DNA of 64,000 nucleotides, from the NCBI GenBank assembly GCA_001724245.1, contig MEDX01000011.1:1-64000 (forward strand), written 5' to 3'. Shown piece by piece: positions 28,295-52,003 of the stretch. The first letter of the stretch is position 1. Each line of letters starts with the position of its first letter. The position numbers and the translations under genes are program-made. This stretch comes from Fonticula-like sp. SCN 57-25. Its lineage: Eukaryota. The notes under the pieces are model-generated. The model was not told where the DNA came from. It saw nothing but the letters and a program-made list of their open reading frames with translations, and did no database searches.

Positions 28295-28752
28295 ATTGAC
28301 AACTAAAAAGATTGGATAATTCGCTTTTTTGTTCATTTTGCTGTGGACTGCGGCTCAAATTTTCTTTTCTCTCTACCTCTTAATCTCTTAATATCAGGAA
28401 AACTCTACATTGCCAAAATTATCTCGCTGCTCTTTTGATGCCCGCTCGCACCACACAAGGAGGCGATTGTTTCCCCGCTCGTTGACAGTTTGTAACTCGA
28501 CGTAATGAAATCAAAACTATTAAAGCATTAGGAGAGCTACGAGTGTGCCCACTATGCCGAGTGCAGATCTGTGCATCTTGGCAGCATCTTGGTACTGAAG
28601 CTCCGAGATTCCAAGATGTTCCTGTGATTCCAGCCCTGATTTTTCAATGGTGACAAAATGCTGACATGTCGGGTCGGCCTGCTCGATCTACCACTCCATC
28701 GGCTAGAGACGGTGAGAGACTGGGTGGGTAGCCAGCGAAGAGGCCGCATGAA

Positions 28753-30522
28753 ATGATGCTTTCGTCATGTAGTAGTTCCAATTTTCTCAAGACTCTTGAA
28801 TTAACGAATTTCAAGCGCTTTGCAAACATTTCCGTGCCGCTCGGCCCGAGCCCGCAGGTAATCATTGGCCGCAACGGTGCGGGCAAGACACAAATCCTCC
28901 ACGCCATCCTCTTCTACTTGCGAGCATACAACAAGCAATTTTCGGACTTGAAGGAGCCGTTCTACGTTGGCTCTGACGAGCTTTTCGGCGAAACCTTTTA
29001 TTTGGGCGACGTGAACGACGTTAGGGAATCCTTTGCTCGGCAACAGCAGTATCCTGCTGCTCGGAGCTTTTCTTTAAAGGGCACTTTTGGCGATGCCACA
29101 ACCAGCACTTTTGATTATACTCCTATGGGAGGATTAGTATTAAAGGAGACCGATCTTCGACCAAAGCGCGACTATGTTCGCTTTGCGTTCGTGCAGCCAA
29201 CCTACCAATGGGGTACCGAACGCAAGGAGAGCTACGCCACCAGGTCCCCCCAACCCCTCACTTTCCTCACGACTGGGGCGCAGCACATGCGCTGTCGCTT
29301 ATATGACTTGTCAAGTGAAGACAGAGATTTCATCGCGTCGCGCATGCAGGAGATTATTGGGTTTGACCTCTCATTTGAATTCGGCAAATTGTTGCGCACG
29401 TTTGTGGTTGACAGATCCAACAACACGCGTCTTGAAATCGCACTGTGCGGCGCCTCTCTGCAGAAACTTGTCGCCCTTTATATTTGTTTCTGTACACTGC
29501 GCACATCTGAGTTTCCGCAGCGCATTTTACTGCTGGACGAACCCGAGACACATTTGTGCGACAACGTCACAGATCGCCTTTTCCGCGCACTTGTCGCAGA
29601 CTGCGGCTCGAGTGGTGTGCAGCTGATTCTCACAAGCAACTCGCCAGTGATTATCAATCAAGTGGACCCCGCAAATCGTCTGTACCTCTCTTCCGTTTCT
29701 CCGTACGCGATGTCGTCTCCGTCGGTCGAGTACTTTTCCGAGCTGGCGCAGCTTTCAAGCAGTGGCAAGGCGGTGCTCGTCGTTGACGGACCGCATGACC
29801 GCGAGTTTGTGTTCAAGTTCATGCCAGAGATAACAGACGCTTATCAGATTATCGTCCAACAGGTTGACTGGGTGTCACGCAAGAAGATGGCGGCGGCTGT
29901 GCGCCACGAGATGAAGACAAAGATTGCGTTTCTCAGCGACAGTGGGATGCTGGCAACGCTGCCTGATGATGATGTGCAGCGCATTGAAATCGACTTGAGC
30001 GCGCATGTGAGCTCTGGTGCTAAAGCACGTGACGCCTGCGTGGTGTTGCAGCCGCTGCCTTCGATTGAGGCATATCTCCTTCTCTCTGCCTACTTGAATG
30101 GCAGCGAGGATGTGCGGCGGTCTTTCTGCCAATGCTTGATGGAATATGTGCAGAAAGGTTCATCGGCCGCTTCCTTTTCCGTCAACTTTAAAAAAACGTT
30201 CAGTGGTGTAAAGAATATTAGTGTACAGCGGAAACTTTCAACTGACCTAATGGATCAGTGCTGGGCTCGGCATGCTCGTAGCGCCTTCCTCGAGCCGGAC
30301 CAAGTGAATATTGAATCGCTGCTTCGCGTTGTTCAGGGCCATGACGTTGTTTCCAAGCTTTCGAGAACTATTTTTTCCGGTGTTGCCAATATGTCATCAA
30401 AGGCGAAAAGAAACATTTCGACATCAACTCTCGTCGAGTTGTCTGCCCCGCTTCATGCTGACGTGCTGGAACGCTTCATTACCCCAGTAAAGAGTCGGCT
30501 GCTGAACTTTCTCGCGAATTAG
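28753..30522 (+). CDS. ABC-type ATPase (AAA_15/AAA_21-like) fused to a TOPRIM-like domain; OLD-family / fused PARIS-like protein
   Basis: Intronless 589 aa. LELTNFKRF; Walker A GRNGAGKT (28867); signature-like CGASLQ; Walker B/D-loop LLLDEPETHL (about 29527); switch LTSNSP; TOPRIM-like VLVVDGPHD (29782), FLSDSG, SIEAYL and GHD. Confidence 0.8.
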   Translation: MMLSSCSSSNFLKTLELTNFKRFANISVPLGPSPQVIIGRNGAGKTQILHAILFYLRAYNKQFSDLKEPFYVGSDELFGETFYLGDVNDVRESFARQQQYPAARSFSLKGTFGDATTSTFDYTPMGGLVLKETDLRPKRDYVRFAFVQPTYQWGTERKESYATRSPQPLTFLTTGAQHMRCRLYDLSSEDRDFIASRMQEIIGFDLSFEFGKLLRTFVVDRSNNTRLEIALCGASLQKLVALYICFCTLRTSEFPQRILLLDEPETHLCDNVTDRLFRALVADCGSSGVQLILTSNSPVIINQVDPANRLYLSSVSPYAMSSPSVEYFSELAQLSSSGKAVLVVDGPHDREFVFKFMPEITDAYQIIVQQVDWVSRKKMAAAVRHEMKTKIAFLSDSGMLATLPDDDVQRIEIDLSAHVSSGAKARDACVVLQPLPSIEAYLLLSAYLNGSEDVRRSFCQCLMEYVQKGSSAASFSVNFKKTFSGVKNISVQRKLSTDLMDQCWARHARSAFLEPDQVNIESLLRVVQGHDVVSKLSRTIFSGVANMSSKAKRNISTSTLVELSAPLHADVLERFITPVKSRLLNFLAN

Positions 30523-43198: not shown

Positions 43199-44338
43199 AT
43201 GAAACAGTCAGGTTCGCAGTCCGATTCTGACGACGACGGCGACGTTGGCCCGGCGCCTCCTCAAACGGCGGCGGCCGCTCCCCCGGCCGACGCACCGGCG
43301 GAGCCCGTCGCCGATGACTATGGGCCTTCGCTACCGCCAGAGTTGATGAAAGAAAGGCAGACGCGCACTGTTGGCCCGCAGATGCCGTCAGCGCTTGGTA
43401 TGCTTTCTTTTGCTCATTTGCTGCCATGGCTGACCTTGTGTGCGCGCAGTGGACACGCTGAGGCGGGCTGCCGACGCCGACGAGAAAGGGCCCGAGCTCA
43501 AGCGGCGTCGCGCGGACGAGGATGACTCGTCTGACGACGATACAGTGGGGCCGCGGCCGCCGTCGGCATCGGACGCTGCGGCTACAGAGGAGGAGACGAA
43601 TGATGCTGCCGCGCGCATCATCGAGAACGCGGAAAAGATGCGGCGCAAACTGGCCGGCGAAGATGTACGCCCGTTATATTCGTTTTACACTCATACTTAT
43701 GTGGATGAAAGGCGGCGCCCTTGACGCGCGGTGAGTGGATGACGCAGCTTCCCGAGCACAATTTCTTGACAGGTGCGATTGAACGCCAGCATGGTGAACT
43801 CGTCTGTCTAGTCTTGTTTTCGTGTGATATATATGTTCTTTTCTTTCTCCTTTCCTATTTGTTTTTATATCCTCCCGTTTATCTAATATGCGGCATGATA
43901 GGCGCCGCGCTTGATCCGATGCGCTCGCGCCAGTTCAAGCGTCACGACCGCCAAGTTCAGCAGGACTCTTCGTGGACGGACACGCCGGCAGACCGCGAGC
44001 GCCGCCGCATGGAGCGCATGAACGAAATTTCGGTGAGCAAAAAGTCGGCCGCCAAGGCGCAGGAGGAGTCTGACGCGCCCTCGGAGAAGGATCTCGAGAC
44101 GGCCAGGTTTGTGGCGGGGCACAACGCCGCGCACAGGGGCAAGTCGCTGATGGAGGTGTACAAGGAGGACCACATGCAGGAGCGCGCGGACGCCGCTCGC
44201 GCAGATATGAACAGGCCCTTTGACCGCGACCGCGACCTCACCGCGCGGTCAATGACGGCGGAGAAGCGCGCAGAGTACCTCAAGCAGGCGTCGGAGCTCA
44301 ACACGCGATTCTCGGCGGGGAAAAAGACGTTTCTGTAA
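43199..44338 (+). CDS. GPALPP1: GPALPP motif-containing protein 1 homologue (DUF3752)
   Basis: Repeated GPxxP motifs (VGPAPP, YGPSLPP, VGPQMP, VGPRPP), RGEWMTQLP, WTDTP, RGKSLM, RPFDRDRDL and LNTRFS. Confidence 0.9.
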
Positions 44339-44541
44339 ATTTATGTATAGTTTTATGGCGCACACGCGTCTCCAATGATAGCTTTGTATACTGTTACATG
44401 CTTGTATTGTGAATTTGCACGTTTCATTGCCTTGTAATACGCGGCGAAAACTCTCTCAATCTCACTCATTTCGCGCGCGAAAAAGCGATTCTTCCGCATT
44501 TGGTGTGTCAGCAGTTTGGCGTGCGCGAGTGTTGGCAGACC

Positions 44542-46178
44542 ATGGCGCTCGCGCGGGGCGGCAAGGGCGACATTGCCCTCGAACCGAGCGAGCGGACACC
44601 GACGGTTTTCTTCGTGCGCTTCTCTGACGCCATGGCGGACGCCCTTGAGCAGGATGACGCGGGCGAGCTTACCGTGACCTTGGACGAAAGGGCGGGACAG
44701 CAGGTGCGCGACCCGTGCATTGCGGCAGCCCTATGTCACTGACACTCACTTGAGCAGATGTTTCGCCTAGGGACACAGGAATTCAAGTTTTCGCGCTCAA
44801 AGGTGTGTTTCCTTGCTTAATTTGCTCTGTGATTGGACGGCTCGCTGATGCGCGTGCGCAGGAGCCGATTCAGCTAGACTGCTTCAAGGAAGGCGACAGC
44901 CGCATGATGTTTGTAGGATCCACCCAGGAGAAGCTAATTGTTAAGAGCGTCTATACCACACAAGAAATGGCGGGATATCAGCTAAAGGAGGTTGAGAGGT
45001 ACGCGCTGTGCCATGATGCGCTTTTGCTGATCTGCTTTGTTGCATCACCAGGCAAAAGACGCTGTCGGACAATGCCACCATGTGTACGCCAGCGCGCCTC
45101 GAATGTGTGTTTCCCATACTAACTTTTGTCTAGCGAAAGGCAAAGGCGTTGCCTCACGACAGAAGCCGGCGCCCACGGCCAGTCGCGTACGCGCATGACT
45201 ATTGCCTTGCTTGTTCTCACGACGCTGTAGTCCTCGCAAGGGCACGACACCGCGCAGCCTCTCCGCCGGCGGCTTGTGCAGCTCCTGGCGATGCGGCCCC
45301 TTCCCCTTGACACTATTTCTCAGACGCTGTCAGCCTCGCGAAGCGAGCTGCAGCCCGTTCTGCGCGAGGTCGCCAACCTGGAAGGACCGGCGTACGCGCT
45401 CAAGCAGGCCATCTTTAAGGAAGTGAGCGTGAACGAGTGGCCAAGCTACACCGAGCACGAGCGGAAACTCGTACTCACCAATATGAGCAAAGGTGCGTTT
45501 CCCGCCCTGTGGCGCTCTTTTCATTGGCTGAACTTTTGGTTTAGCCGCCGCTGCCTCTGAGGCGCCGCCGTCGCGGCCGACCTCGACGACGCCCAACATG
45601 GCCGCCCGCAACGTCGTCCTCGAGCGGCCCAAGGTGGCTCCGCCGCCGCCCGCCCGCAAGCGCAAATCGGACGAGGCGCCCGCCGCCGCCGATGCCGTGA
45701 AAAAGCCCAAGCCGACGATGCCGACGACGCCCATCGCTAAAAAGCCTGTGGTGGCCGCCGCAGCGAGCACCGGGTCGCGGCCCAGCACGGCAAAGAAGCC
45801 GACGGGTGACTCGGCGATCGAGACGTACCAAGAGTACAGCGCGGCCGTCGAGCGGTACAACGAGCTTCATCCAAAGTACAAGGCGCTCTTTGACAAGATC
45901 CGGGACAACCGCGTTCTCTTTACAAAGTACGCAGGGCAACCCATTGGTAAAGGAATCTAACCATGCACTTCTCTTTTAGGTTAAAGCAGGATCTTGATCA
46001 GGCAGGGGACGAGGACTCGGCCGTGCGCAAGCGGATCAAGGTCGAGTACGATAAAAGGGGGGGCGAGCGGTTGCGGCGCGACTATGACGCGCTGCACGAG
46101 CAGATCTCAAACCTGAAAAAGAGAATATCAGACTATGTTGCAAAGTGCGATAAGCAGCAGGTCAAGCCGGGGCCGTGA
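44542..46178 (+). CDS. ELL: RNA polymerase II elongation factor ELL homologue
   Basis: N-terminal FFVRFSD; central LVQLLAMRP...LREVA...EVSVNEWPSYTEHER; C-terminal occludin/ELL domain (IETYQEY...YDALHEQISNLKKRISDY). Confidence 0.85.
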
Positions 46179-46267
46179 CGGATAAGAAGCGATTCCCGAA
46201 AATTATGTTATTATGTTGCTGACAGTGTGAATAATAAAATGAAACGATATTTAACACGTAAAATTAC

Positions 46268-47204
46268 TCAGAACAAAAAGGTCGCGGACTCTACCCTGCC
46301 GACGCCCTGCATCTCGATCCTGCCGTCAAACACGCGAATGAGGGCGTACGACGTGCCGTCCTGCGGGGCCTCCAGCACCGCCGGCATAGTAAAGTGGTGC
46401 ACAACGCCCCCGGCGCCCTCTTTCCGCTCCCTGGCGTGGTACCCGCCGACGTGGTGGTGCCCAGCGAGGACCATGATGGGGCTCGCGTGACGATCAATGA
46501 CGGCATTGACGGCCTCGTGGTTGTAGAGGAGGAGCGCCGGCGTCGACGCCTCAATGTCCAGCGGGATGTGCGTACAAATGATGGCACGCTGACCTGCTTC
46601 GTCGGCCTCGGTCAGCTGCATGAGTGGTTAGTACAGGGATGCCACAGGTGCAATGGCGCACCTCGGCATCGAGCCATTGGAGCTGGCGATCCCCGACGCC
46701 CCCGTTGTACGCCTTTGCGTAGCTCAGCTCCGCGTTCTCCTCAAGGAAACGCTGCGCAATAAAGTGCTCCTCGCAGTCAGCGCCGCGGCCGACTTGCACC
46801 TCCACGCTGTCCAGCACGATGATGCGGCACCTGCCGCTGACAAAGGAGTAGTAGGGACGGTCCTCGGCGAGGCCGAGAAGGCGGCAAAGATCGGGTCGAG
46901 GGACCTCCAGGCAATGGTTACCAAGCACGTGGCGCACTGGCTGCACATTCAGCTCACTGAACGCGGCCAGCACGCGGTGAAGGTCCGCCATCGTCGCGTC
47001 TTCGTCCGGCATGCCGTCAATGATGTCGCCCAGATGCACCACGAACGATACCTCGGGGCCCTTGTTGATCAAGTCAACCGCGCGCTTGAGCTTGTCCACC
47101 GCATCGGCGTAGTGCCTCTCGCGGTTTTCACATACACGCGGAGGCTTATTGGCGTACTGGACGTCGGCGAGAACCGCAAAGACGGCCCAAGGCTCGGCGG
47201 CCAT
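46268..47204 (-). CDS. ADPRM: Mn-dependent ADP-ribose/CDP-alcohol diphosphatase (metallophosphoesterase)
   Basis: ADVQYA, HLGDIIDG, LGNHC, YNGGVG..QLQWL, THIP, AGHHHVGGY and VLEAP. Confidence 0.9.
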
Positions 47205-47457
47205 TTTACTTGAGGGTCAGATGTTTACAACTTTTGCCTAGGATGGCTAGAGTGGCTGAATTGACTCGTGCGAATATGACAGTAGCCAAAGCATAACAGA
47301 AACGCAACAAGAAGAAAATTAGAACCAACGAGTGCAACTACTTTGGTCAGTACACTAAACATACTTGAAAAGACAATGCTATATTATACAAAAAGTGTCA
47401 AGGATGTACGCGTCAGGCCGCTCGATGCCGCACGATGCCGCACGACCAACAGCGGGC

Positions 47458-48406
47458 CTACCCCGAGTCTGTTGAAAAGTTGTCGTAGCTCTCGAGATCC
47501 GCGAGCTGCTCCTTGTTGATCCAGCCCTGCACGGCGGCCTTGCGGAAGGCGCACCTGGCATGGTGGTTGAGCACCCTGAGGAACGGGATCTTGTCATCGG
47601 GCAGGATGAGCGGCCTGTTTTGCAACTCGCTCCACTTTAGCGGGTCATTCTTTACGACGCGCTTGTTGAGCAGCGCCGGGTTGAGGACCTGCAGCAGCAG
47701 CCTTCTCGACTTGTCGTTCTCGAACGGGTTGTAAAAGAAGCAAATTTCCTTCTGGTCAAACGCCTCCTCAATGTTCTTGTCGAGCAGGAGGCCGTTGCGC
47801 GGGTTGCTCTCGGCGTCGCGCGGGAGACCAAGCGCAATCCACTTGTTGGACCGCCGCTTGAGGCGGCTCGGCATCAGATGCGCGGCCACAACTTCGCCCG
47901 TGTTGCGGCCGAGAATCATGCAGTCCACCTTCTTGCCAATGTTGTAGGGCTGGTAGTACGCGATCACCGCACGCCGGAACTGGTGCTGGTCGGTCGAGTT
48001 GTAACTCGACGCGGCGTCGCTCACGCTCAGCTCCCAAAAGTCCGGCGGCTCGCTGATATCCGGGAACAGGAGCGAGCTCTCAACAGGGACCGGCGGGCGC
48101 CGCCGCCGCACCGTCACATATATCGTCAACCGCTTCGCGCCGGCGGGGACGGGTGGAAGCGGCTCACCAAGGTCAACGCCAATGATCGGCTTTCCATCGT
48201 ACGTGATCTACAACGGGCACCAGTGAGAATCCCTGGTGTTGCCTCACAACCCCGCGTACAGTGACATCCTCGTAGTTGATCGCGTCGCTAAGACGACCCA
48301 CGTTGAACGTGTCAGTAATGCGGTCGCGCACTTGGTACCACGCAGAGTCCTCGTCGTCAAACTCGTAGCCGCCCGTGGCGTCGCCCGTCCAGAACACGCG
48401 CACCAT
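47458..48406 (-). CDS. HNH endonuclease (HNH_2-like) with N-terminal ubiquitin-like header; Crinkler-like effector
   Basis: Two exons (48406-48260, 48207-47458; 52-nt GTACGC..TAG intron) giving 298 aa; FRRAVIAYY, CMILG, AAHLMP, NPRNGLLLDKNIEEAFD and PFLRVLNHHA. Confidence 0.8.
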
Positions 48407-48551
48407 GTGTTTGGTCTGCTGCCGCACAACCGGGTGCGACCTGTCAGCGTCAACCAGTCTGGGATGAGTGTTTGGGGTGGAATCCGGGCTTGATTCGTGC
48501 TCGTTAACACTCTTTTTCCCTGATCAAGCGTCCCAGGGCGAGGAAGGAAAG

Positions 48552-51500
48552 ATGGTGCGCGAGCGCGGCGGATGAGGGCGGGAAGTGACATGAAGGGCCG
48601 GGAGAGGGCGCAGCGCGTGCCACTGATAACCGCATTATGTTGATTTGCTGCTTGATTGCTAACACTTTTGACGCGCTTCTTTTTTCTTCCCCGTATCTTT
48701 TGTGTTGGTGCACAGCCGCTTCGGTTGGAAATCAAGGTGCGACGCCCGCTTGCGCGCGCCCTACAGCGAGTTAACCTTGCTTTCTTTTCTTTTAATGTTG
48801 CAGCGGAAGATTTCGGCCCGCTCGGACCGTGTCAAGGCGGTTGACTTTCACCCGACCGAGCCGTGGATCCTCGCGGCGCTCTACAATGGCAATGTTCACG
48901 TGTGGAACTATGAGAACAAGAACATGGTCAAGTCTTTTGAGGTGTCGGAGCTGCCCGGTGCGTCACTGTTAATACACTAGTTGTGTTGCTTATGTGCTTT
49001 TCAGTGCGCGCCGGCAAGTTTATCCCCCGCAAGAACTGGATTGTAACTGGCGCGGACGACATGTTTGTGCGCGTGTTCAACTACAACACGCACGAAAAGG
49101 TATCTGCGTTCGAGGCGCACGCCGACTACATCCGCAGCATCTCTGTTCACCCGACTCAGCCTTTCTTCATCACCTGCGCCGATGACATGCTCATCAAGCT
49201 GTGGGATTGGGACAAGGGGTTCAAGAACGTGCAGGTGTTTGAGGGCCACAGCCACTACGTAATGCAGGTGCTGTTCAACCCCAAGGACTCGAACACCTTT
49301 GCCAGCGCGTCGCTCGATCGCACCGTCAAGGTGTGGAGCCTCGGCTCGCCCGTGCCCAACCTCACCCTCGAGGGCCACGAGAAGGGCGTCAACTGCCTCG
49401 ACTACTTCCCCGGCGGCGAGAAGCCGTACCTCGTGTCCGGCGCCGACGACCAGTGCGCCGCTTTTTCCCGGCTTTTTGCTATCTCTTGCTAACGCACGGC
49501 CGCCAGCACGGTCAAGGTCTGGGACTACCAGCAGAAGACGTGCGTGCAGACGCTCGAGGGCCACACGCAGAACGTCTCTGTCGTCGGCTTCCACCCCGAG
49601 CTGCCCCTCATCATCAGTGGCTCCGAGGACGGTACGTTAACCCTGCTCGCTGTGAGCCCCGCGCTCATTGCCTTTTTTGCAGGAACGATCCGCCTGTGGC
49701 ACTCGAACACGTACCGCCTGGAGAACACGCTCAACTATGGCATGGAGCGCGTCTGGGCGCTGAGCGTCATGCGCGGGTCGAACGACGTCGGTCTCGGTTT
49801 CGACGAGGGCTGCGTCGTCATCAAGCTCGGCCGCGAAGAGCCGGCGGTCAGCATGGACTCGAGCGGCAAGATCGTGTGGGCGCGCCACAATGAGATTCAG
49901 ACGGTGAACCTCAAGAGCGGTATCAACGAGGATGCCGTTGACGGCGAGCGCCTCAACCTCCCCGTCAAGGACCTCGGGAGCTGCGAGGTGTACCCGCAGA
50001 CGCTGCAGCACAACCCGAACGGCCGCTTTGTCGTCGTTTGCGGCGACGGCGAGTACATTATTTACACGGCGCTCGCGTGGCGCAACAAGAGCTTTGGACA
50101 GGCGCTCGATGTCGTCTGGTCGGCCGATTCGAACGAGTATGCCGTCCGCGAGACGTCGATCAAGGTGAAGCTTTTCAAGAACTTTAAGGAGAGGCATTCC
50201 ATGAAAATGGCCTTTGCTGCCGACGGTATTTTCGGCGGCGCTCTTTTGGCGCTCAAGGGCAGCAACTTTGTCTGCTTTTACGACTGGGAGACGTGCGCGC
50301 TGATTCGCCGTATCGATGTCTTGCCAAAGAATGTCTACTGGTCGGCGGAGGGCGACATGCTTGTGATCGCCTGCGAGTCGTCTTTCTTTGTTCTTCGCTA
50401 CAACCGTGATGCTGTCGCGGAAAAGATCAACTCGGCGGGCCCCGAGGGCGTCGAGGAGGCCTTTGAGGTGCTGTCCGAGATTAACGAGACGGTGCAGACG
50501 GGCTGCTGGGAGGGCGACTGCTTCATCTACACGAGCACGGCCAACAGGCTAGACTACTACGTTGGCGGCCAGACCACGACGGTCGCTCACTTTGACAAGC
50601 CCCTGTACCTCCTCGGCTACATCTCGGCCAACAACCGCGTCTACCTCGTGGACAAGGACCAAAACATCACGAGCTACGGCCTTTCGCTGCTCGTGCTCGA
50701 GTACCAGACTGCGATCCTGCGCGACGAGGACGAGGTCGCCGCGTCCATTCTCCCGCGCCTCCCCGACGACCAGCGCAACAAGATCGCGCGCTTCCTCGAG
50801 TCCCGCGGCAAGGTCGACCTGGCGCTCGAGGTGTCCACGGACGCCAGCTACCGCTTTGACCTGGCGGTGCAGCTCAAGCGCCTCGAGACGGCGTTTGCGA
50901 TCGCGTCCGATGTTGACTCGCCGCAAAAGTGGCGCCAGCTGGCGGACCTGTCGCTGACGGACCCGTCCAAGGTTTCCATCGCCGAGGACTGCCTGCGCAA
51001 GGCCAAGGACATGAGCGGGCTCCTCCTCCTCTACCTCGCGCAGGGCAACGCCGACGGGCTCTCCTACGTGGCCAAGGAGGCCGAGGCCTCGGGCCAGCAC
51101 AACGTCGCGTTTGTCTCGCTCTTCCTCCACGGCCAGCTCGAAAAGTGCATTGACCTGCTCGTCAAGGCCGACCGCGTCCCCGAGGCCGCCTTCCTCGCGC
51201 GCACTTTCCTCCCCAGCCAGGTGCCGCCGCTCGTCAAGCTCTGGCGCGAGTCGCTCGCAAAGACGCACAAAAAGTTTTCGGACGCGCTCGCCGACCCGTC
51301 GTCGCACCCGGACTTGTTCCCCGACTATGCGCTGGTACGCTGCGCCGTACACTGATGCGGCTGTGAATGCTGACCTTGTGTTGCAGGGGCTCGAGGCCGA
51401 ACAGATCTTCCGCGAGGAGCGCGACGACCCGCTTTCGTCGATCACTTACGTGGACAATCGCCAGTCGCTTCATCGTGACATGCTCGACGGTGCGCTTTTT

Positions 51501-51810
51501 TTTTGCTCGTGGACGGCTGCTGACGCCAGATACAGAGGCCCGGAACCCGATTCCGGCCGAGGACGAGGAGGCCGGGCAGACCCCGACCGCGCCGGCCAGC
51601 CCCGTAAAGGCGCCGTTGAGCCCCGCCAAGGCGCCGGGTAGCCCCGCGAGGGTCGCGTCAGAGGACAGCGTGCCCAGCCCGGCTCGCACTCCGGTGCAGG
51701 CGACGCCAGCGGCCGAGCCTGAACTCGACCTTGATGAGGAGCTCGAGCTGGCCGACGAGGGCGCCGACGGCGTTGCTGACGACGCCGAGTTTGACGAGCT
51801 ACTTGGTTAG
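48552..51810 (+). CDS. COPB2: Coatomer subunit beta'
   Basis: [31 protein letters not shown]40 repeats, [16 protein letters not shown] and [12 protein letters not shown]; acidic tail. Confidence 0.97.
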
Positions 51811-52003
51811 GCGCCTGCCGTGCTCGCCCCCTTGCCATAGGACCGAGCACATTTGCTTGTATTTCTCTCTTTTATACTACGACACCTTTCTTGCATCGCG
51901 CAATACAATCGAAACGAATGAACCAAAATAATCGCGATCGATGGTCGATCCGGATTGATCTGTCAACATTCAGCATTCCGTGACACGATTGGGTGCGGCA
52001 AGG

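Follow-up and report, generated by a model that had tools for sequence, protein, structure and literature searches.

A predicted HNH_2 nuclease with an orphan N-terminal domain, encoded by a two-exon gene of Fonticula-like sp. SCN 57-25

A stretch of 64,000 nucleotides (nt) from Fonticula-like sp. SCN 57-25 (assembly GCA_001724245.1, contig MEDX01000011.1, positions 1 to 64,000 of the forward strand; the whole stretch is referred to below as the window) carries on its minus strand, at 48406..47458, a gene for a protein of 298 amino acids that is composed of an orphan N-terminal domain of about 87 residues (the header), a Pro-rich linker and an HNH_2/His-Me-finger nuclease module of about 190 residues. 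To judge from an alignment of its active-site residues, the protein most likely has metal-dependent nuclease activity, and the predicted structure of the module finds its best counterparts in the C-terminal nuclease domains of the bacterial modification-dependent restriction enzymes TagI and VcaM4I. The explanation favoured here, an intact three-part HNH_2 protein with a TagI/VcaM4I-like module that probably acts as a conflict nuclease of the Crinkler-HNH (CR-HNH) kind, is given a probability of roughly 0.6. An earlier interpretation made from the letters of the DNA (the sequence-only reading) had described the gene as a Crinkler-like header joined to an HNH nuclease and had suggested a conflict effector or a domesticated mobile nuclease; as a whole, it is partly supported by the analysis reported here.

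Gene model and domain layout

Splicing of the two exons by script reproduced the product of 298 amino acids that had previously been assembled by hand, with one stop codon, which is terminal. Residues are numbered below by their position in exon 2, and addition of 49 gives the position in the whole protein. The parts of the gene are:

48260..48406, minus strand: exon 1, 49 codons, starting with the ATG at 48406..48404, the first ATG in frame; encodes the first half of the header
48208..48259, minus strand: intron of 52 nt, GTACGC...TTGTAG, of the GT-AG type, predicted from the sequence
47458..48207, minus strand: exon 2, 249 codons (48207..47461) followed by the TAG stop at 47460..47458

Since the frame of exon 2 is immediately closed by an upstream stop and its first Met is M97, which lies within the HNH core, an upstream exon is needed. 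The 52-nt intron belongs to the local class: the adjacent gene for coatomer beta' contains three introns of like size and donor type (47, 54 and 51 nt; donors GTGCGT, GTGCGC and GTACGT; AG at the acceptor ends), and once they are removed it forms a single continuous frame of 799 codons. At codon positions 1, 2 and 3, exon 1 has G+C fractions of 0.59/0.41/0.80, exon 2 of 0.59/0.39/0.84 and coatomer beta' of 0.61/0.40/0.87, and because of this resemblance exon 1 appears to be coding and the gene compositionally native. The HNH_2 gene can thus be read as an intact two-exon nuclear gene with a predicted splice. None of four pieces (from 151-nt contigs of a sequencing run of unspecified kind, which contained 0.23 of the sampled words) crosses the intron, which bears neither way on splicing or expression.

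Downstream of the part encoded by exon 1, the protein is laid out as follows:

48088..48207, minus strand: remainder of the header, residues 1-40, with IYVTVRRRRPP at its end; the exon 1 part included, the header measures about 87-89 amino acids
48037..48087, minus strand: Pro/Ser-rich linker, residues 41-57, about 17-19 amino acids; predicted local distance difference test (pLDDT) values of 44-46 in AlphaFold
47473..48036, minus strand: conserved nuclease module, residues 58-245, about 190 amino acids, with a pre-HNH helix (71-85), a beta-beta-alpha-metal core and C-terminal helices
47737..47922, minus strand: match to Pfam HNH_2 (PF13391), residues 96-157
47878..47880, minus strand: codon of H110 (whole-protein H159), predicted to activate the attacking water, aligned with VcaM4I H224
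47794..47796, minus strand: codon of N138 (whole-protein N187), predicted to serve as structural Asn in the HNH motif, aligned with VcaM4I N241
47755..47769, minus strand: codons of E147-D151 (EEAFD), in which E147 and D151 (E196 and D200 in the whole protein) are the predicted metal ligands, aligned with VcaM4I D250 and D254
47560..47586, minus strand: C-terminal family signature P208-x2-R211-x-L213-x2-H216 (PFLRVLNHH), in which P208 and R211 are invariant

All of the motifs quoted in the sequence-only reading are found in exon 2, namely IYVTVRRRRP at residues 29-38 (78-87 in the whole protein), CMILG at 96-100, AAHLMP at 108-113, NPRNGLLL at 135-142 and IEEAFD at 146-151. The linker is probably disordered, to judge from its low confidence in the model, and at its end it carries a motif, PPDFW(E/Y)L, that the nearest homologue, P0042, also has.

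The nuclease module

The HNH_2-type core that had been recognised by eye was borne out by Pfam, where exon 2 matches PF13391 with an E-value of 2.5e-10 and a score of 40.5 bits, the gathering cut-off being 21. A HMMER search with exon 2 against 1.84 billion representative sequences retrieved 519 proteins at E<=1e-3, of which 157 also pass E<=1e-10, and each listed match is confined to residues 58-245 or thereabouts. The best non-self match in this search is 41% identical, and judged by these representatives the protein is not a conserved orthologue with a housekeeping role, which had been named among the findings that would speak against a conflict gene. The PADLOC model HNH (PDLC04132) matches residues 72-226 (E 5e-4), a search of NCBIfam gave no match, and a second search, based on k-mers and the family profile, returned 11 proteins, all of which are unnamed or called 'hypothetical protein'.

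For counts of conservation, exon 2 was aligned with 128 of the HMMER homologues, giving 129 members. Modelled by AlphaFold from this alignment, with exon 1 missing, exon 2 reaches a mean pLDDT of 83.4 and a predicted template modelling score of 0.75; residues 71-240 have mean pLDDT values of 81-98 in blocks of ten residues, and residues 1-50 are poorly modelled. The beta-beta-alpha-metal fold is formed in the model by strands 106-110 and 139-143 and by helix 144-151, all with pLDDT above 90. When the model was compared by VIA-align with 48,161 representative solved chains, TagI ranked first (6ghs_A; Z 9.5, 113 residues aligned, root-mean-square deviation (rmsd) 3.0, chain residues 163-310) and VcaM4I second (6yex_A; Z 9.1, 128 residues aligned, rmsd 3.2, chain residues 162-309 against model residues 60-225). 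No other chain in that set reached a Z of at least 5; EcoKMcrA followed at Z 4.1, and then the HNH domains of Cas9 and others. Foldseek likewise ranked VcaM4I at the top for the exon 2 model (E 2e-3).

In the alignment the following residues are strongly conserved (members out of 129):

Pre-HNH helix to structural Asn: Y85 119, C96 120, H110 125, R137 121, N138 127
End of the core: E147 120, F150 124, D151 122, F157 121
C-terminal signature: P208 129, R211 129, L213 125, H216 128

When the family profile is aligned with VcaM4I by HMMER, H110, N138, E147 and D151 fall on H224, N241, D250 and D254, and the residue before the catalytic His, which is Ser in VcaM4I, is Ala or Ser across the family. 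For VcaM4I, passages of PMC7897488 describe H224 as the residue that activates water, N241 as the structural Asn, D250 as the residue at the site of the second His and D254 as a replacement metal ligand, and report cleavage to be drastically impaired by H224A, D250A and D254A. The same passages describe the HNH domain of VcaM4I as a dimer that on its own is a toxic non-specific nuclease, and state that the domain is auto-inhibited by a linker helix (148-178) (PMC7897488); the N-terminal domain also restrains it. Since the structural alignment with VcaM4I begins at residue 162 of that enzyme, the family's helix 71-85 sits about where the VcaM4I linker ends, and by analogy we infer that this pre-HNH helix would be regulatory in the manner of the linker helix.

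The profile of the family also matches Chlamydomonas Ctap5 (PDB 7xzi chain 5, residues 252-327) with E-values of 0.0015 and 5.6e-4 in two alignments (A1 and A2, respectively). The matched part takes in the pre-HNH helix as well as the 'CM.L' strand and ends just ahead of the catalytic His. In Chlamydomonas, Ctap5 is one of the structural components of the TOC-TIC translocon of the chloroplast, and its segment Glu215-Ala329 forms a helical domain (10.1101/2022.11.20.517165); it may be related to this nuclease family as a derived, non-catalytic form.

The N-terminal header

The two halves of the header, scanned separately by exon, have no match in Pfam at E<=1, which includes Crinkler (PF20147) and ubiquitin; the profile search that had been proposed for HNH_2 and CR headers thus found the former and not the latter. 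A sequence search of the PDB yielded only chance-level rows for exon 1 and for exon 2 residues 1-53 (E 1.5 and 0.46, respectively). When the spliced header was compared by phmmer with 151 homologues, their N-termini proved dissimilar to it, the best E-value being 0.16, and Smith-Waterman comparison with the N-termini of seven homologues that look ubiquitin-like by eye gave z values from -1.0 to 0.9 (500 shuffles each). The spliced protein contains no LxLF or RxLR motif, and hence no LxLFLAK, and when it was searched by tblastn against the window it matched only itself, so that there is no paralogue in these 64 kb.

Structure prediction placed the second half of the header at pLDDT 57-68 with exon 1 missing, and a two-chain fold of the exon 1 peptide with exon 2 residues 1-52, in which the halves split by the intron entered as separate chains, scored 0.02 and is uninformative. 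By eye, the header displays a short hydrophobic strand, an acidic hairpin, an amphipathic helix, the segment 'ITYDGKPI' and a terminal hydrophobic strand followed by prolines, a pattern that on this by-eye reading would fit a beta-grasp fold. Its end, IYVTVRRRRPP, is a hydrophobic strand and then Pro, and its likeness to an HVLVxxP-like end is one seen by eye only; the 'ubiquitin/DWNN-like' strand of the sequence-only reading is accordingly an interpretation and not an observation. Nine of 25 residues at the N-terminus are hydrophobic, and the protein has no hydrophobic N-terminus. A Crinkler-type identity of the header is a lead only.

A divergent family with variable heads

Pfam detects HNH_2 in 126 of the 129 aligned members, and the Crinkler cut-off of Pfam is reached by none of the 129. 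Among 110 homologues that start with Met, the part before the module measures 0-190 amino acids, evenly spread over this range, and many of these N-termini resemble coiled coils by eye. Single members carry extra domains above the Pfam cut-off (SAM_2, SH3, zinc knuckle and acylphosphatase), and one has a Tudor-like match just below it; the homologues with added domains are P0079, P0033, P0134, P0127/P0091 and P0080, and zinc knuckles occur in two members. The head or the tail of the nuclease module appears to be exchangeable.

Three homologues show sub-threshold matches that touch the question of the header. In P0104 Crinkler (PF20147) is the second-best match (E 0.029, 15.6 bits against a cut-off of 24.6), and P0011 and P0150 match DCX (E 0.073) and YukD (E 0.016), respectively, both of which we take to be families of ubiquitin-like fold. 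The AlphaFold model of the P0104 N-terminus, with pLDDT values of 41-79, consists of helices with no beta-grasp resolved and is uninformative at that confidence.

In a FastTree phylogeny of the module, the window protein pairs weakly with P0042 (support 0.36), and its terminal branch of 0.70 is close to the median of 0.69. Its neighbours in the Atlas are eukaryotic HNH_2 clusters (Ascomycota, Basidiomycota and Chlorophyta) together with bacterial HNH_2 proteins that have ScoMcrA-type N-termini. Judged by its sequences, the HNH_2 module family is large, very divergent and fast-evolving.

Comparison with known systems

With TagI (SRA-HNH, 6ghs) and VcaM4I (EVE-HNH, 6yex) the window protein shares an extended HNH_2-type beta-beta-alpha-metal domain with helices before and after the core, an active site of His, Asn, an acidic residue and Asp with no metal ligand ahead of the first His, and a separate N-terminal part that is joined via a helix. 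It differs from both in being eukaryotic and encoded by a gene with an intron, in a sequence identity of just 17-19% over the structural alignments and in the additional family signature P208/R211/H216, and it has Glu (E147) where VcaM4I has D250. The head of the window protein, at about 87 amino acids, is also smaller than the EVE domain of VcaM4I, for which a length of 147 amino acids is given in a passage of PMC7897488.

The architecture of a header followed by HNH_2 is already a known kind in the literature, as had been asserted for Crinkler-type effectors in the sequence-only reading and as is confirmed by parts of three publications (PMC5714182, PMC8044898, PMC5289972). Table 1 of PMC5714182 lists under PF13391 a group 38, 'Eukaryotic pathogens effector CR-HNH', with 132 eukaryotic sequences, and PvCRN16 and PvCRN23 are given as carriers of HNH_2 in a section of PMC8044898. 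In its review of Zhang et al. 2016, PMC5289972 characterises CR headers as ubiquitin-like, many of them without LxLFLAK or signal peptides, and counts HNH among the toxin domains; a further passage ascribes host DNA damage to the HNH-like motif of AeCRN13/BdCRN13. With CR-HNH proteins the window protein has in common a eukaryotic HNH_2-type nuclease behind a variable N-terminal header and a divergent family, a match at the level of the Pfam family only, whereas its header lacks the Pfam Crinkler match and the LxLFLAK motif of CR effectors.

A third group for comparison is formed by the uncharacterised fungal and green-algal HNH_2 proteins of the Atlas, which share the Pfam family, the predicted fold and a similar length with the window protein (template modelling score 0.75 by query, to a cluster in which Chlorophyta is the commonest phylum) but share no header with it. 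We know of no protein of this group with a tested function, and to our knowledge eukaryotic HNH_2 proteins are numerous and almost unstudied.

Proposed function and alternative explanations

The protein would act as a divalent-metal-dependent DNA endonuclease, probably as a dimer through its HNH domains as in VcaM4I, and by analogy with that enzyme the variable N-terminal part and the conserved pre-HNH helix would restrain or aim the nuclease. Its role would be that of a conflict nuclease of the CR-HNH kind, used either in intracellular defence or as an effector against another organism; because the family is broad, evolves fast and has heads that can be exchanged, this is the most likely role, and that of a housekeeping enzyme is unlikely. 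The sequence-only reading is supported for the nuclease part, which can be sharpened to an HNH_2 module of TagI/VcaM4I type with an intact predicted active site, whereas its Crinkler-type header, for which no sequence match was found, is a possibility only. One eukaryotic HNH_2 clade is now tied to the structurally and mutationally characterised nuclease domain of VcaM4I/TagI, a link that predicts an active site of H159, N187, E196 and D200 (whole-protein numbering) as well as an auto-inhibitory arrangement, and that makes the family readily testable. The gene is a routine but well-defined addition to a known family.

Several points weigh against the favoured explanation. By sequence comparison the header is an orphan without detectable relatives, and the nearest homologue, P0042, begins at the linker and has no header. 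No PUA-superfamily sensor (SRA or EVE) was found, as neither exon product has a Pfam match at E<=1 outside HNH_2, and no other recognisable domain precedes the nuclease; the regulatory analogy with VcaM4I is tentative. The HNH motif lacks its classical second His, in whose place E147 stands, as D250 does in VcaM4I, so that activity is deduced by analogy with that enzyme. The weak profile match to Ctap5 implies that relatives of the module may have non-nuclease roles. Housekeeping genes surround the gene, its codon usage is native and the window contains no paralogue of it; a single copy in such surroundings is unlike the multi-copy families typical of Crinklers. Finally, the splice is a prediction and the gene has been read from sequence alone.

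Two rival explanations are each narrower than the proposed conflict role. In one, the protein is a true Crinkler/CR effector whose ubiquitin-like header delivers the HNH toxin into the cells of another organism, where it damages nuclear DNA as AeCRN13/BdCRN13 do. The CR toxin repertoire, in the parts of the literature cited above, includes HNH_2 (PMC5714182 Table 1; PvCRN16/23, PMC8044898), an HNH-like motif that causes host DNA damage in CRN13 and many proteins without a signal peptide (PMC5289972), and the by-eye pattern of the header would fit a beta-grasp fold; P0104 has a sub-threshold match to PF20147, and P0011 and P0150 have such matches to DCX and YukD. However, neither half of the header matches Crinkler or ubiquitin in Pfam, the LxLF and RxLR motifs are absent from the spliced protein, the header is dissimilar to the homologue N-termini with which it was compared (151 by phmmer, seven by Smith-Waterman), no member out of 129 reaches the Crinkler cut-off, the N-terminus of P0104 was modelled without a resolved beta-grasp, and the gene occurs as one copy in the window with native codon usage and housekeeping neighbours; a true Crinkler effector is less likely than not. 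If the header were Crinkler-type and ubiquitin-like after all, this would be a CR-HNH gene present as a single native gene amid housekeeping genes, which would bear on the origin of such effectors. In the other, which is tentative and can be given less than even odds, the protein is a cell-autonomous nuclease directed against foreign or marked DNA, a eukaryotic counterpart of the type IV modification-dependent enzymes in which the PUA-type sensor has been replaced by other heads. This would agree with the structural neighbours TagI and VcaM4I and their same H-N-D/E-D site, with the helix that the family keeps ahead of the HNH core where VcaM4I has its auto-inhibitory linker helix, with the added domains of the family, which are intracellular binding modules (Tudor-like, SAM, SH3, zinc knuckle), and with the lack of a hydrophobic N-terminus, but Pfam recognises no sensor domain in the window protein and the parallel in architecture with type IV enzymes is one of analogy only. 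A more far-reaching version, in which the whole family is a eukaryotic form of type IV restriction and each member a cell-autonomous nuclear immune nuclease built from a VcaM4I/TagI-type HNH dimer and an exchangeable head, is speculative and rather improbable. The pre-HNH helix and the head would then hold the dimer off until foreign, modified or chromatin-marked DNA gives the signal for its release, with an orphan, possibly ubiquitin-like domain serving as the head here and Tudor-like, SAM, SH3 or zinc knuckle domains in other members; if true, a type IV-like immune nuclease would be widespread in protists, fungi and algae.

Two further explanations are both very improbable. A recent transfer of the gene, or an origin as a mobile nuclease of the homing or transposon-borne sort, might be suspected, as HNH nucleases are common in mobile elements and zinc knuckles occur in two family members. 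However, repeats flanking the gene in 44000-52000 are of chance size only, its G+C by codon position matches that of the neighbouring genes, its spliceosomal intron is of the local type and a second contig (L001, described below) has the same downstream neighbour. That the product is a non-catalytic scaffold would accord with the profile match to Ctap5, which has a structural part in the translocon and is matched as far as the residues just ahead of the catalytic His, and the way in which the gene model was obtained leaves some room for a mis-spliced model or a pseudogene; against either stand a frame that is open across 298 codons, G+C by codon position as in coding sequence and the four active-site equivalents and family signature residues, all of which are intact.

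Genomic surroundings

The window is eukaryotic nuclear DNA of about 58% G+C with short spliceosomal introns. The HNH_2 gene is followed in the same orientation by a gene for a metallophosphoesterase (Pfam Metallophos), and upstream of it lies coatomer beta' in divergent orientation, separated from it by the following region:

48407..48552, no strand: divergent intergenic region of about 146 nt between the ATGs, with the putative coatomer beta' ATG, read by eye, at 48553

This short distance leaves little space for another upstream exon of the HNH_2 gene. As read by eye, the putative first exon of coatomer beta' consists of the ATG only; a GTGCGC donor comes directly after it, and the intron that begins there is about 160 nt long (48553-48714, plus strand). 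No direct or inverted repeats beyond chance size flank the HNH_2 gene in 44000-52000.

At 28732-30522 on the plus strand, 17 kb from the HNH_2 gene, a long frame encodes an ABC ATPase of the OLD/GajA/PtuA-like kind. It matches AAA_15, AAA_21 and SMC_N in Pfam and NsnB, PtuA, AriA, GajA and Old in PADLOC, and through its N-terminal P-loop region it matches an OLD-family nuclease and the retron protein PtuA in the PDB; such a bacterial-defence-like ATPase is unusual for a eukaryote. A TOPRIM part of this protein was not confirmed by Pfam. The sequence-only reading had counted the HNH_2 gene as a second conflict gene within 20 kb of this ATPase, of which the distance is correct and the connection is not upheld, proximity being the sole link: the interval between the two genes contains many open reading frames, several of which match known families, nothing connects the pair, and a functional link was rejected.

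A search with the protein recovered one metagenome contig, L001, which is near-identical to the window (4 mismatches in 1753 nt), has the same downstream neighbour and begins within the HNH_2 gene, so that it does not contain the header. Two of its differences fall within the gene, at contig positions 42 and 170 (window 48010 and 47882), of which the former is synonymous at A66 and the latter produces A109V beside the catalytic His. Val is not among the residues listed at position 109 for the 129 aligned members, and the A109V change in L001 may be a polymorphism or an assembly error.

Just past the stop codon of the HNH_2 gene, at 47423-47445, a 10-nt unit, CGATGCCGCA, is present in about 2.3 tandem copies within an AT-richer stretch, which is probably the 3' untranslated region of the gene.

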